This document shows positions 14,853 through 32,253 of a DNA stretch of 32,253 bases, piece after piece. The stretch comes from a virus (lineage: Duplodnaviria > Caudoviricetes). Position 1 is the stretch's first letter, and each line of letters opens with the position of its first letter. The position numbers and the translations under genes are program-made. Below the pieces are notes generated by a model. It was given only the letters and a program-made list of their open reading frames with translations. It was not told the origin of the DNA and ran no database searches. The stretch is taken from positions 1 to 32,253 of the IMG/VR virus record IMGVR_UViG_3300017903_001739. The stretch is one strand, 5' to 3'.

Positions 14853-15035
14853 TTAGTGGATTTGTCCAGGGCTTATGTTTTCGAGATGCTCCATAATCTC
14901 TTCAGCGAGTATCTGAGCGTCGTCTAGCCCCCCTTCGTCAAGCGTTAGCAAGACTGCGGCGTTGCCTTCTGGCGTTTCAATAACATGCATTGAAAAACCA
15001 ATGATGCCTTCTTCATCAGAATCAAAATCAATCAC
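14853..15035 (-). CDS. Small acidic hypothetical protein (60 aa)
   Basis: GTGA overlap with the endolysin stop. Confidence 0.6.
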   Translation of the reverse strand: MIDFDSDEEGIIGFSMHVIETPEGNAAVLLTLDEGGLDDAQILAEEIMEHLENISPGQIH

Positions 15036-15508
15036 TTAGCAAGCCCTTCCGTGTAACGCTTACCATCAAACACTAGGACTTGTTTGCGATTGTGTCCACA
15101 GGTTTTATAGCTGCAATGAATCCAACCGCTATCAGGATCGCCCTTCGTGTAGTGCTCAAGTATAAGCTGATCAAACTCAAGGTTGTCTCGCACCCAACAA
15201 GCAACATCATAGTTGTCGATCCCCATCACCTCAAAATCAACAGCCTCACCCTTTGCGTGCTGGCTGGTTGTTTTGCTGCCCAGTGCCTTGCACAGAGCTT
15301 TCGATCGGTATCCAGATGTGATTACAAATCCGGTGGGGTATTGATCCATCAGGGGGTCTAGGATTGCTTTAGACAAGCCCCTGAGGTTCTCTACATGCTT
15401 TGGTGTAGGGGTGTTGTCTATGCCACGACGTGTTGCTGTCTGGCTCTTGGTAAGCTCCCGCAGATCAAACCAGGAGGATAGGCTCTGGTTCTCTACGGGA
15501 GTTGTTAC
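15032..15508 (-). CDS. Peptidase M15A endolysin domain; 5' end lacks a start codon, probably reached by -1 frameshift from the holin-like gene
   Basis: LSSWFDLRELTKSQTATRRGIDNTP (upstream of the track's TTG at 15376), SGYRS, SQHAKGEAVD (H-x6-D), DQLILE, WIH. Confidence 0.88.
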   Translation of the reverse strand, partial: VTTPVENQSLSSWFDLRELTKSQTATRRGIDNTPTPKHVENLRGLSKAILDPLMDQYPTGFVITSGYRSKALCKALGSKTTSQHAKGEAVDFEVMGIDNYDVACWVRDNLEFDQLILEHYTKGDPDSGWIHCSYKTCGHNRKQVLVFDGKRYTEGLAK

Positions 15509-15514
15509 TTTTTT
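15455..15514 (-). promoter_or_regulatory. Candidate programmed -1 ribosomal frameshift signal (A_AAA_AAG, 6-nt spacer, stem-loop)
   Basis: Heptamer 15514-15508 in the correct phase; stem CTCCCGTAGA/TCTGCGGGAG plus GAACCAG/CTGGTTT. Confidence 0.7.
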
Positions 15515-15888
15515 CCGCGACCGCCTTTGATAAAGTCAGTGGCTTTGATTCCGAAGCTGGCAGTTACAGCAATATACAGCAAGTTTTGATACCAATCCGG
15601 CAAAGATTCGAGAACTTTGAAGCCACGCTGCACAATATCTGCATCAATGAAAGCAAGAATGGCAGGGATGGTAAGAACAATAATCAGATACTCGTCTTTC
15701 CAGCTACCCTTGGTGGCATCAGCCATTGTATTTTCCCAATCAACCTCACCCGTTGCAACCTTCTGCATTACAACCGCTTCGGCTTCTGCTTTCATTACTT
15801 TGGCTTTTGCCTTGGCTTTGGTTTCTTCTGCTTTGCCTTCAACGAAGCTGCTGGCAAGACCACCAGCAATTTTAAGTAGCCCTAGCAT
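15505..15888 (-). CDS. Holin-like membrane protein (resembles 3TM gene-transfer-release holin family)
   Basis: SWKDE + TM (YLIIVLTIPAILAFI), LPDWYQ + TM (LLYIAVTASFGI), basic C-tail; adjacent to the endolysin; ATG 15888 (or GTG 15891). Confidence 0.7.
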   Translation of the reverse strand: MLGLLKIAGGLASSFVEGKAEETKAKAKAKVMKAEAEAVVMQKVATGEVDWENTMADATKGSWKDEYLIIVLTIPAILAFIDADIVQRGFKVLESLPDWYQNLLYIAVTASFGIKATDFIKGGRGKK

Positions 15889-16103
15889 CACTTATCCTTT
15901 GATCTCTCGTTTAGTAATCGGTCGATGTGGTGATTCCACAAAGAAAAAAGTTGTTCAATCTTCTTGTCTATCTGACGCAGCCGCTCTTCATGCGTGTTGT
16001 TCTGCGCCTCAAGTTTGGAAATGTTGCGCGAAACCCACCACGCTCCAACAAAGAACGCTGTGATTACAGGCCACCATTGGAGGAGTGTCTCCCCGAAGTT
16101 CAT
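15888..16103 (-). CDS. Small membrane protein with N-terminal TM helix and coiled coil (lysis-associated)
   Basis: ATG 16103 with GAGG RBS; WWPVITAFFVGAWWV then heptads. Confidence 0.7.
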   Translation of the reverse strand: MNFGETLLQWWPVITAFFVGAWWVSRNISKLEAQNNTHEERLRQIDKKIEQLFSLWNHHIDRLLNERSKDK

Positions 16104-16105
16104 GA

Positions 16106-16267
16106 CTACCTCTTCAGCCAACTCTTCACAGTCTCAGTTTCAAAGATACGGATGAGCCACCAAGCCAAAGCGGCGACAGCCGTGGCCTCTGGTATCCACG
16201 AAAAGAAGGCACCGAGGGTGGTAGCCCCCGCCACGCCATCTATTGCTGCTTTTGCTTCTTCGGTCAT
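16106..16267 (-). CDS. 53-aa hydrophobic holin-like protein (MTEEAKAAIDGVAGATTLGAFFSWIPEATAVAALAWWLIRIFETETVKSWLKR), not in ORF track
   Basis: Translated by hand; TAATG coupling; two hydrophobic segments. Confidence 0.75.
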   Translation of the reverse strand: MTEEAKAAIDGVAGATTLGAFFSWIPEATAVAALAWWLIRIFETETVKSWLKR

Positions 16268-20543: not shown

Positions 20544-23500
20544 TTACTTCAACCAAAGTTCCTTAGAGTCTTCGTTGAGACCAAGAAGGGCCAGCAAGGG
20601 AAGGCTCGGAGTGTTGTAAAAGAATCTTGACTTGCCCTTGTCAACATCACCAGAAAGCATCTCATCAACAGCCAAAACCCACTCACGAGCCATACCTGGG
20701 CCAGCACCCAAGGGGTCAAAAAGAGAATCATACCCAGTCGGGGTGTACTTCCCTGGCAAGTTCTTGAGACCTGGAACATCGTTAGCAATAGCAGCGTGAA
20801 GGCCCATATAAGCAAGATCAGAGTAAATGCCAAAGATACCGGACTGATCTGCAATCCTAGCAGCTAACTCCCCAGAAGATTTAGTCTCAAACCACCAGTC
20901 AGGCTTCTTAATTGATAGTGACAAGTAAGCCATCGTAAACAAAGCAATCGCACCCTGAACACGATAACGACGCGATGGGTCAAACATCTGTGCTGTAATT
21001 CTGTTGGTAGCTGCAAGCGAGAAGTTCATAAACTGGAACGGCAATGCAAGTGCTTTAGACTCAAGACGAGCATATTTAATGTTTTCGGTAGAAGCGCGTT
21101 TGTCTATGGTCAACTTACCAAAAGGTAGCTTTTCCATCCAAGGGTAATGCCGGACATAAACAACCCCATCAACAATCATTGGTTTGTCAAAAGATGTGGC
21201 GTGCATAATGGTGTTGCCAGCGCCAGAGTTCATGGCTGTGTCAAACTTTAATGCAAGATCACGCTGCGCTTTTGTCTCCACAGGCCATGCGCTGCGGTTA
21301 GCAAAGTAAAAGTTTCCACTATCAGACACTTCCCAAATATCGCTCATTGCAGCAATACGCTTTGCGTCTTCAATCTCTATGCCGTAACGAGCAAGATACT
21401 CAACATCAAGCCCAGCATTGCGATCATTCTTGGCAACACGAACAGCCATATCAATCAACTCTGATTGCCTGTATGTGCCATCAACAATCTTGCCGTATCT
21501 TGTCATTGCACCGAGATTGTTTCCAATCAGGGGGATGTTGTAAAAAGCAGAGGTAACTGGATTAAATACACGCTCAATAAAATTAGGGTTAAACCCCTCA
21601 AGAGAGTCACCAATAACCCGTTGCTGAACCCCAGGAATTACATATTGGGTACCCTCTACAATGCGCTCGACATCCTTCTTAGCCTTTGAAAACAACTCTC
21701 CAACATTGCCAGTTTGATCTACAAGCGGGGCAAGAATCTTTCCCAAGCCCCTCTCGAAAACAATCATCCCAGTGTCAGCTACAGCACTAATACCAGCACC
21801 GTGCAGGTAAGTAAGGCCAGATGCTTCCTTCAAGGCTTGTGCTGCCTGATTGGTAAAGCTATCTGGGTTGCGAATAACCTGCCCCATAACGCGAACATAC
21901 TCGCTAGAAAGATCGCGTTTTACTTGGGCAATCTTTTTTTCAGAAAGGCCAACCCTTTCCATTTCCTCAACAGCTTCATCAAGAACGTCATCAATATTCT
22001 TGTTTCCGAAGTTCCGGCTCCACTCAATACGGCGACCCATTCTCTGTGCATAGCTAAAGAAAACGCGCTCGTCTTTGATGATAAAGTCTTTGATTTCGCT
22101 AATAGGTATGTTGAGAGCACGATGCCGCAAGTGCTTGCTGCCAGTCATCTTGAACTCAGAGCCGCTAAGATCTGGCTCTTCTTCACCCAAGATGCTTCCA
22201 ACGATCTTTTCCGCACGCTCACGAGCATTAAAGTTTGCTGGCTTTCTTAACCACTCACCAAGTTCGTTATCCCAGTAGTGAGTTTCTTTTGCAATATTAC
22301 GCTCAACAACATCAGTAAACTGACCCTTCAAAGCCTCATCAGCAGCAAGACGAGCTTTGTCGTAGTAAATCGGCATAATGTAATCACTGCGAGACCCAGC
22401 GTAATACTTCTTGAAACCTTCGTAATACTTTATGCTTGCCTCTAGCTCTTCAGCTTTTGTTGCTAACCGTTGAGCCTCAGAAGATCGACGAGCAGGATCA
22501 GTCACATTGGAAAGGTCAAGCTCCTGCTGGCGAGTTCGAACAACGTCAAGCTGATCACGAGCACCAACAAGAAACTTGTCAATGTTAGTTACATCCTGCA
22601 ACAGCCCAACATCTTGAGCGTCTTGCAGAAACTCATTGTTAAAATCACGGATCCTTTTAAAAACACGCTCTTCTGCCTCGGTAATCTTTGCAGAAGCACG
22701 GGCAGCAGGATCGCTCATTTGGATATACCTATCAACCGTATCGCCAAACCACTTACCAAAATTACCTTTGAAGCCAAAGACACGAGCCGGATCTTCATAG
22801 TCAATGCCAGCAACACCAACCAAAGACTTCCTGCCCTTTACTTCAAGATTGTACTCAGCACGAAGATCTGCAATGAAGTTACGGGCTTTCATAGTGTAGA
22901 TAGGATTGCGCTGCCTAATAGACTGAACACCCTTACCCGCAAGGTTCTTTTCCAGAGCCATAGCCCCGTTGCCTTCCATGCGGACATACATATCCTTAAT
23001 AAGCTCGGGAAGCTCCTTGTCAGTCAAAAGCCTTTTGCCTGGAGTCGGAATAAGTCTAAACCACCAACTATCTGTAGCTCCCGTTTCCTTGAGGCCAGAT
23101 CCCCCAGGAACCTCCGTAAACAAATCCACATCCTGCTTCTCTGAAATGGATCTCAGGTTTTTAGCAGATCGAGTATAGCTACCCGCAACACTTCGTATAG
23201 CACTAGGGGCCGTTCCTAGAACTGTACCAAAAGCGGTGGTGGTAAGCAGATTCATTGTTGTTTCGCCCGTGGTATTCACAGGATCAAACGGAGCGCGAAC
23301 AACCTCAGCAGCAGCAGCAGCACTCGCAGATGCAAGTGCGGCACTGGTAGCAGCCTGACCAACCTTTGCTGTCAAACCAATCTGACCAAACACCGGAATA
23401 GCAAAAGCAATGTTCAGGGGATCAACAATTCCAGCAACAAGAGCGCCAGAAAAAAAATCAGCCTCTTCCATAACCTTGCGTCGCCGCAGGTTTTCATCAA

Positions 23501-31549: not shown

Positions 31550-32253
31550 TACTGAATCGGTGGTTGCTGCTGTTGCTGCATAAGTTGCATGAGTTGTTGT
31601 ATCCGTTCCCTTTCGGCCTCATCCCTAATCAGTGATTCTGGAACGCCGAACTTCCTAGCAAGGTAAACGGCAGTCTCTTCGGAGTCAATAAGCATATTCA
31701 CCATCTCAGGCCCAAAGCGTCCACCAACAACTTCTAGGAAGCGGTCTACGGTTGTAATATCCTGATTAGCTTGTGCCTGTGCAAGAGGTGAGATACTACG
31801 GACTTTCACCTCACGACCATTGACTGTAGGCAAGTCAATACGACCCTGCTTTTTCAGAATGTAAACGACACGCTGAATCAAAGGCTGAACAAGCTCTGCC
31901 TGAAGGCGACCAAATGCAGAACCAATGCGGCGGCTCAAATCAGCCATACGTTCTGCAATCTCAGTAGCAGTAGCAGGGGTACGGTTTGGATCACCAAGCA
32001 TGTCATTGTACAGCGCACGCTTAATGTTCAAACGCATGTCGTTTAGAACAAGATTGGCAACATCGAAACGACCAGCAGCATTAACAGGCTGAAGGCCACC
32101 AGATCCAGGAGCCTTTGGGATAACTGTTCCTGGAACCAAGTTAATAGTGTCCACATTGGTAATGCCATCGTCATCCATTTGATAGATACCAGAGATTGCC
32201 ATCTGTGCATTTTCAAGGATAAGCTGGACTGTAAGGTTGGTGGTTTTGATTGC
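31549..32253 (-). CDS. Portal protein, 3' part (runs off the window end; overlaps copy 1 through the repeat)
   Basis: Same peptide as 1-378, then C-terminal PLIQRV...SPLAQAQ...poly-Q. Confidence 0.93.
   Translation of the reverse strand, partial: AIKTTNLTVQLILENAQMAISGIYQMDDDGITNVDTINLVPGTVIPKAPGSGGLQPVNAAGRFDVANLVLNDMRLNIKRALYNDMLGDPNRTPATATEIAERMADLSRRIGSAFGRLQAELVQPLIQRVVYILKKQGRIDLPTVNGREVKVRSISPLAQAQANQDITTVDRFLEVVGGRFGPEMVNMLIDSEETAVYLARKFGVPESLIRDEAERERIQQLMQLMQQQQQPPIQ
31876..32253. repeat. Terminal direct repeat / circular overlap, copy 2
   Basis: About 95% identical to 1-378. Confidence 0.95.

Follow-up and report, generated by a model that had tools for sequence, protein, structure and literature searches.

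A probable programmed -1 ribosomal frameshift joins a holin-like membrane protein to a start-less M15 endolysin in a podophage genome and its relatives

The window analyzed here, the complete 32,253 nucleotides (nt) of IMG/VR virus record IMGVR_UViG_3300017903_001739 (Duplodnaviria; Caudoviricetes), carries on its minus strand a gene for a small holin-like membrane protein followed directly by a frame encoding a peptidase M15 endolysin. Because this second frame has no start codon, and the first gene ends in an in-phase A_AAA_AAG heptamer followed by a conserved hairpin, the endolysin is probably made by programmed -1 ribosomal frameshifting, as a membrane-protein-endolysin fusion of 285 amino acids (aa) that would accompany the free 127-aa membrane protein. 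Judged from the comparative sequence evidence below, the signal joining the two genes is real, conserved and very likely functional, which supports the interpretation that a first-pass annotation had proposed from the letters of the window alone.

The membrane-protein gene (15505..15888, minus; ATG at 15888) ends GGA AAA AAG TAA, with the stop at 15507-15505 and the heptamer (15508..15514, minus) in phase and abutting it. The -1 frame, bounded upstream by TGA 15538-15536, remains open through 15535-15032 (167 aa from stop to stop), and its earliest ATG, GTG or TTG is TTG 15376, which would give an open reading frame (ORF) of 114 aa. Entered at the heptamer, the start-less frame (15032..15508, minus) runs for 158 codons from 15508 to 15035, with its stop at 15034-15032, and encodes a short linker and the endolysin; the predicted shift product thus has 127 + 158 = 285 aa. 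The positions of the heptamer, of the upstream TGA and of the codon at 15376, as well as the sizes of ~127 and ~285 aa, had been given by the first-pass annotation and are borne out in the sequence. Its remark that other late genes have ordinary starts also holds, all 13 starts examined in neighboring and late genes being ATG or GTG.

A long stem-loop, the predicted frameshift stimulator (15455..15501, minus; outer arms 15501-15492 / 15464-15455), opens 6 nt past the heptamer, as had been noticed before. Its folding energy is -26.7 kcal/mol (z-score -5.23), and none of 200 shuffles was equally stable. Among the five A_AAA_AAG sites in the window, the junction site has the most stable 3' structure (-26.7 vs -5.2 to -18.0). 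Another of the five, at 21939 (minus), lies inside the gene for a 1079-aa internal virion protein and has a moderately stable 3' structure (-18.0). Reading the hairpin as an intrinsic terminator was rejected because no U-run follows; it is also absent from the terminator listing. Upstream, a Shine-Dalgarno (SD)-like AAAGGCGG (15521..15528, minus; duplex -8.3) ends 6 nt 5' of the heptamer and is a possible local stimulator. The complete signal spans ~60 nt. Six A and no endolysin start are also found at the junction of an independent contig (L001/L006; 96% identity over 1.4 kb), and its stem differs from that of the window by one C-to-T change that keeps the pairing. Compared with L001, the second half of the membrane-protein gene (window 15700-15535) has diverged much more strongly than the flanking sequence. 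This divergence, which reaches to 15 nt from the heptamer, likely reflects recombination within the gene.

The -1 frame encodes an intact predicted M15 endolysin. It matches Peptidase_M15_3 (PF08291) from residue 23 (E 8e-15, 55.4 bits; cut-off 23.2) and the phrog_894 endolysin from residue 15 (E 3e-31), and both matches begin well upstream of TTG 15376. Ten residues invariant among 29 aligned endolysins precede this codon as well, in agreement with the earlier claim that a start there would remove a conserved N-terminus. The zinc-ligand positions His-x6-Asp plus His (H86, D93, H133) and R70 are invariant in all 29 aligned rows. A profile search matched the endolysin to 1LBU (E 0.0016), and a phmmer search against PDB gave no match. 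Among 32 scanned ORFs of the window, this is the only M15 or other stand-alone endolysin.

To survey relatives, 392 loci were collected via five routes (two proteins, the holin alignment in viral and in metagenome contigs, and two DNA patterns). The holin-alignment loci are the best 80 of 575 (viral) and the best 80 of 556 (metagenome) matches, about a quarter of each collection having been scanned. The membrane protein is matched by 300 records including the window; four were dropped as their contig ends before the stop, and the rest represent 203 distinct gene ends. An in-phase A_AAA_AAG combined with an endolysin in the -1 frame was found at 56 distinct junctions (121 records, many being the same contig twice), whose endolysins are 53-100% identical (median 62%). 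Seen from the enzyme, 75 distinct junctions have an M15 endolysin at most 130 nt behind the membrane protein; 57 of these carry the in-phase heptamer, 55 of them with the endolysin in -1, and the 56th -1 junction (L162) was rescued by hand.

The frame relation is kept although the spacing is not: the distance from the stop to a conserved glutamate is 41, 44, 47, 50, 53, 62, 65, 68 or 74 nt, and all of these lengths keep the -1 frame. A DNA pattern with a free gap of 22-52 nt gave matches with a length that is a multiple of three in 60 of 61 viral contigs, the sole other match carrying neither gene. In all 60 pattern-matched family contigs the run consists of exactly six A. The alternative raised by the first-pass annotation, a seven-A run giving a plain in-frame fusion, was not seen in any of these assemblies. 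The linker is stop-free in the -1 frame at all 56 junctions, with stops at 44 in the zero frame and at 30 in the +1 frame, and linker variants are distributed 31/15/55 over the three codon positions. For the 34 ATG-less junctions, the stretch before the last weak start candidate holds 34 synonymous vs 24 non-synonymous variants (30% expected, p 5.5e-6), and all 34 share an invariant Phe four codons ahead of the anchor. Coding-type (purifying) selection on the -1 linker is supported by these patterns. Pro, Ala and Lys abound in the longer linkers, which in this may resemble interdomain linkers.

With respect to starts, 22 of the 56 junctions have an ATG, 19 have only GTG or TTG, and 15 have none. 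The expectation that homologous endolysins would be start-less, also made in the first-pass annotation, is borne out in several subgroups; 34 of the 56 have no ATG, and 22 keep one. A quick tree, in which L001 represents the window, scatters the ATG-less rows over at least five separate groups; the lack of an ATG tagged on its non-frameshift rows is an artifact of the search range. With an open backbone the tree needs four changes of the frameshift label, and a single origin is also compatible with it. The L086 group was withdrawn as a start-less case, an ATG being present after all. Prokaryote genomes yielded 10 loci with the DNA pattern, nine with neither gene and one (L389) with the full junction; the latter, in a metagenome bin labeled Opitutae, is probably a co-binned phage contig and therefore provides no host evidence.

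Covariation of the hairpin was assessed on 29 aligned junctions, which came mostly from a scan asking for the A run but not for a stem. For the 9-pair outer stem, 94% of cells are paired, 20 cells are changed on both sides and none of 500 shuffles was as good, compared to 37-53% paired in slid controls. One stem pair occurs as U-A, C-G and G-C across the relatives. As the 3' arm of the stem overlaps endolysin codons, amino-acid changes there are tracked by the 5' arm. The median hairpin z-score is -2.8 for 58 heptamer junctions vs -0.7 for 18 adjacent junctions without the heptamer and -0.05 for 125 others. The first helix begins 5-7 nt past the heptamer in 50 of 56 junctions, where 3' structures in bacterial -1 signals typically lie 5-9 nt past it. 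In two subgroups (L101, L105, L142, L298 and L127, L157, L171), other 3' stems take the place of this one at an unchanged distance from the heptamer, and the stop of the second subgroup comes one codon later. Both the conserved heptamer and the covarying hairpin that the first-pass annotation had envisaged for homologous loci were thus found.

The heptamer is absent from all 120 homologues that precede other genes. Considering only loci found by protein similarity, a gene-end A_AAA_AAG occurs in 22 of 40 endolysin-adjacent junctions (20 in -1, 2 not) and in 1 of 121 non-adjacent ones, a descriptive contrast given that the sets are kin-structured; the lone non-adjacent case is a family contig ending 35 nt past the stop. 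Homologues not followed by an endolysin mostly end in two lysine codons too (G_AAG_AAA, G_AAA_AAA or A_AAA_AAA), and their next gene starts by an ATGA or TAATG overlap. Likewise, in 15 adjacent membrane-protein/endolysin pairs stop and ATG overlap, with neither heptamer nor hairpin. Among the 18 adjacent junctions that lack A_AAA_AAG, L213 (1877-1883) and L214 carry G_GGA_AAG before the stop, the endolysin in the -1 frame and small hairpins, and keep an ATG 5 nt after the stop codon begins. This G_GGA_AAG, which we take to be the lambda site, is possibly a second heptamer or an intermediate. As a separate observation, near position 900 of L097 a run of seven A marks the junction between an unrelated gene and an ATG-less M15 frame that follows it, and the sister contigs have an ATG; this junction may be an assembly chimera.

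Natural in-frame fusions, which had also been suggested as informative, were found in two forms. In L354:284-799 (minus; the same contig as L123) the membrane-protein gene is almost wholly deleted and its first codons stand in frame with linker and endolysin, as expected if the linker is translated; this 171-aa ORF, known from a single contig, has a short hydrophobic N-terminus. P0046 is a 337-aa in-frame fusion of the membrane-protein family (residues 5-122, E 4e-27) to a GH108 muramidase and PG_binding_3, so that an endolysin at this C-terminus also arose by another route. It is a singleton cluster on six contigs and was 1 of the best 150 in an exhaustive profile search; among 8 matches to it there was no full-length fused relative. 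Word-index searches (583 and 7999 candidates) gave no longer forms of the membrane protein, but the method is insensitive, since the exhaustive profile search did find P0046.

The hydropathy of the 127-aa protein shows one clear helix (~residues 66-84) and a weaker second one (~100-118; 0.98), with an acidic loop and a C-terminus holding 4.75 basic vs 0.67 acidic residues. Hydropathy and charge suggest two membrane helices with both ends cytoplasmic. The protein matches phrog_2524, of unknown function (E 4e-29). A small membrane-protein gene beside an endolysin, a general trait of holins, is present in the window and in CRP-902, CRP-13, HMO-2011 and HTVC010P, in which the family adjoins endolysins of different classes; the neighboring enzymes in cultured phages are a chitinase-like enzyme, a lysozyme, an endolysin and an M15 peptidase.

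Several observations weigh against frameshifting as the source of the endolysin or reduce the force of the evidence for it. The 56 junctions are related to one another, which the p-values do not take into account, 80 locus records came from scans demanding a heptamer-like run or a stem, L354 and P0046 are single cases, and searches of cultured phages found none with this junction. The hairpin z-score lies above -2 in 17 of 58 heptamer junctions. The SD-like element pointed out by the first-pass annotation is present in the window as described, but it is weak in the relatives (median duplex -2.8) and hence not conserved. L041 (1772-1800) and L046 combine an in-phase A_AAA_AAG and an immediate hairpin with an endolysin that lies 112 nt off in another frame and has its own SD and ATG; their heptamer is probably unused, and therefore a heptamer by itself proves nothing. 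An ATG is retained in 22 of 56 junctions, so free endolysin may also be made in those phages. The SD before the retained ATG is weak overall (median -2.5 vs -4.5 in non-shifting pairs), but strong (-6.5 to -8.2) in L087, L104, L119 and L389, where both fusion and free endolysin may be made. Finally, the second codon ahead of the anchor is TTG or CTG in 54 of 56 junctions, more often than the leucine codon usage of the genes would suggest (228/607). This last point and the ATG kept inside the hairpin in 22 of 56 junctions fit an account in which the endolysin is a separate protein that arises through termination-coupled reinitiation, its start being a weak codon inside the hairpin (CTG 15463 in the window; TTG/CTG or the retained ATG in relatives), with the hairpin merely keeping the endolysin low and coupled to holin translation. 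Going by titles only, the lysis gene of MS2 is said to have moved from a frameshift model (1982) to a termination-activation model (1987). However, the CTG of the window (15461..15463, minus), located in the 3' stem arm and the only near-cognate start candidate of the linker region, has no SD before it, the median duplex before the candidate codon is +2.1, and two of 56 junctions have TTA or CTA instead. The codons upstream of the candidate evolve as protein, including the invariant Phe, and L354 translates the linker in frame. Reinitiation requires neither one frame over nine lengths, nor a linker that is stop-free in 56 of 56 junctions, nor an exact heptamer, and we regard it as quite improbable. 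Slippage of the RNA polymerase on the A run would likewise join the frames, through an extra A in some transcripts. Such slippage usually requires longer runs, whereas the run is just six A in 60 of 60 contigs, and the G ending the heptamer, the codon phase and the stem 5-7 nt downstream (50/56) are ribosomal features; L213 and L214 have G_GGA_AAG at the same place without a long run. Polymerase slippage does substitute for ribosomal shifting in Thermus dnaX (PMC5009743), but as an explanation of this junction it is very improbable. Since a homopolymer sits at the break, we also considered that the A run was misread or misassembled, or that the endolysin frame is a pseudogene with a lost start. 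Against this stand the identical run length throughout the 60 family contigs, which come from many assemblies, the intact catalytic residues, purifying selection on the linker and the lack of any other M15 or stand-alone endolysin among the 32 scanned ORFs; both possibilities are largely refuted, and we give them hardly any credence.

A more serious alternative accepts the frameshift and questions the holin. The identity of the upstream protein follows from remote similarity and gene context without passing a family cut-off, which is why we write holin-like where the first-pass annotation wrote holin: the context holds, but the window protein has no match to PF11351 (GTA_holin_3TM, formerly DUF3154; cut-off 24.8 bits). 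Relatives stay below this cut-off as well (L004 at 16.7 bits; 2 of 24 alignment members at E ~0.1), and among 30 further relatives none matched at E 0.01. The fold model is all-helical but poor (predicted local distance difference test score, pLDDT, 59). Its Foldseek matches are not significant ('Holin of 3TMs', at E 0.38, is the best with a name), and a profile alignment to a protein annotated with that name covers no more than 35 columns at a probability of 47%. The upstream protein could thus be an antiholin, a membrane anchor or an export aid. The holin would then be encoded by one of two ORFs further upstream, a 71-aa ORF (15888..16103, minus) with a hydrophobic N-terminal stretch and a coiled-coil-like tail, a possible further lysis protein, or the hydrophobic 53-aa ORF upstream of it (16106..16267, minus), a candidate alternative holin or antiholin. 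Family scans of both gave no match, and a search of the minus strand of the window for a convincing spanin lipobox found none. The membrane-protein family is, in addition, found before many unrelated genes. On the other side, depositors annotate relatives of the protein as DUF3154, and a member of this family, TeaA of phage ICP1, has tested holin activity (PMC7182436). The Atlas search (3 of 30 matches in clusters with PF11351 on 20% of members) and the Foldseek result lean weakly to the GTA_holin_3TM family, and the position beside varied endolysin classes in CRP-902, CRP-13, HMO-2011 and HTVC010P also suits a holin. We consider a non-holin role of the upstream protein unlikely, although it is an alternative to be kept in mind.

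If the endolysin is made by frameshifting, the hairpin would, by analogy to dnaX, hold up the ribosome while two lysine tRNAs occupy AAA AAG; the tRNAs would slip back to AAA AAA, and translation would proceed in the -1 frame. Slow termination at the adjacent stop would perhaps aid the slippage. Unshifted ribosomes would stop one codon on and release the 127-aa membrane protein, with the fusion as the minority product. The membrane protein would be a holin of the GTA_holin_3TM/DUF3154 neighborhood with a basic cytoplasmic C-terminus. From this topology we infer that the fused enzyme would be tethered to the inner face of the membrane within holin rafts, its share depending on how efficiently ribosomes shift, and that it would stay cytoplasmic and meet the cell wall only once the lesion opens.

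A possible history starts from an ancestor with two genes coupled by an overlapping stop-start (ATGA or TAATG). Heptamer and hairpin would have arisen at the overlap, the Pro/Ala/Lys-rich linker would have been inserted in whole codons, and the endolysin start would then have been lost in several subgroups. As the non-shifting neighbors already have the endolysin in -1 behind lysine codons, the path to the signal would be short. The stepwise order would be overlap coupling, frameshift with a retained start, loss of the start, and full in-frame fusion. We see an even chance that this amounts to a distinct, repeatedly evolved lysis design, in which free holins and a set fraction of endolysin-carrying ones build the raft and the holin delivers the enzyme, and whose stepwise birth can be read in this lineage of marine podophages.

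Phage lysis is usually drawn with a separate holin and endolysin, the latter being free in the cytoplasm or a signal-arrest-release (SAR) endolysin. Frameshifting has been linked to lysis genes before (PMC10885494). The two-gene lactococcal lysin described by Shearman in 1994 reportedly consists, by its title, of genes for lysin parts, not of a holin and a lysin, and the MS2 lysis gene, later ascribed to termination (by title), differs in having no fusion product. The signal itself is of a known kind: in E. coli dnaX (gamma/tau) and in insertion sequence (IS) elements, A_AAA_AAG stands in phase with a stem-loop 6 nt downstream, as here, and of the heptamers tested in E. coli, A_AAA_AAG, the dnaX site, shifts most readily (PMC5009743). 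In contrast to dnaX, the shift here would append an enzyme domain to a membrane protein, and the zero frame ends immediately. A 5' SD 9-14 nt upstream is a major stimulator in dnaX and occurs in ~56% of IS elements (PMC5009743); it is optional in that class, and the SD-like element of the window, 6-9 nt from the heptamer, is unconserved. As in lambda gpG/gpGT, where a low-level -1 shift yields a 30:1 ratio (PMC5009743), one late gene would give a short abundant form and a rarer, C-terminally extended one. Unlike lambda G/GT, whose genes sit between those for the major tail and tape measure proteins of a long-tailed phage, the tail genes here are those of a podophage, the downstream ORF is PF08291, and the products are a membrane protein and a cell-wall peptidase, not tail chaperones.

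Another parallel is the TpeE-family holin-endolysin fusion of Clostridium sporogenes, with the endolysin at the holin C-terminus as predicted here, for which it is argued that a holin fusion can deliver the enzyme (PMC9527704). There, every holin is fused, in one ORF, the holin is of another family and the host is Gram-positive; the word 'frameshift' is absent from the available part of that paper (PMC9527704). The window does not hold such a continuous ORF, given the stop at 15507-15505, and none of the 60 family contigs has seven A. ICP1 TeaA (PF11351) is the nearest experimentally tested holin to the family toward which the upstream protein leans, with a membership below the cut-off, and no frameshift is mentioned for it in the accessible text (PMC7182436). 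HTVC010P and marine relatives have the same two families (endolysin 56%, membrane protein 26% identical) as separate genes, each with its own ATG, and in reversed order in HTVC010P. Engineered or cloned holin-endolysin fusions are also cited (PMC9636201).

In the SEA-PHAGES set, 2397 of 2476 annotated frameshifts concern tail chaperones or virion proteins (PMC10885494), and 'holin' does not occur in the available parts of the frameshift papers PMC5009743 and PMC10885494. Full-text literature searches, with subscription journals and supplements outside their reach and most papers judged by abstract, found no holin-endolysin fusion made by frameshifting. The mechanism is known, whereas its use for such a fusion was not found in print. 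If true, the junction would represent an additional means of setting the ratio of enzyme to holin and of positioning the enzyme where the lesion forms, and would extend phage frameshifting beyond tail chaperones and virion proteins. It would also provide a natural small system for the open question whether holins carry cargo or only open holes (PMC9527704). Gene callers will truncate or miss such endolysins.

The window is a near-complete, circularly permuted podophage genome with 47% guanine plus cytosine. Its ends (1-378 vs 31877-32253) overlap by 377 nt at 95% identity within the portal gene, which is a circular assembly with strain variation. Family scans identified terminase, portal, capsid, tail tube, nozzle and internal virion proteins. 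Among cultured genomes, that of pelagiphage Hodr is the nearest (terminase 68%, capsid 53% identical); neither the membrane-protein gene nor the M15 endolysin gene was found in it, and the relatives with named records are marine. The plus-strand gene block opens with an ArdC-like anti-restriction protein (PF08401 + PF18818; 7493-8371, plus).

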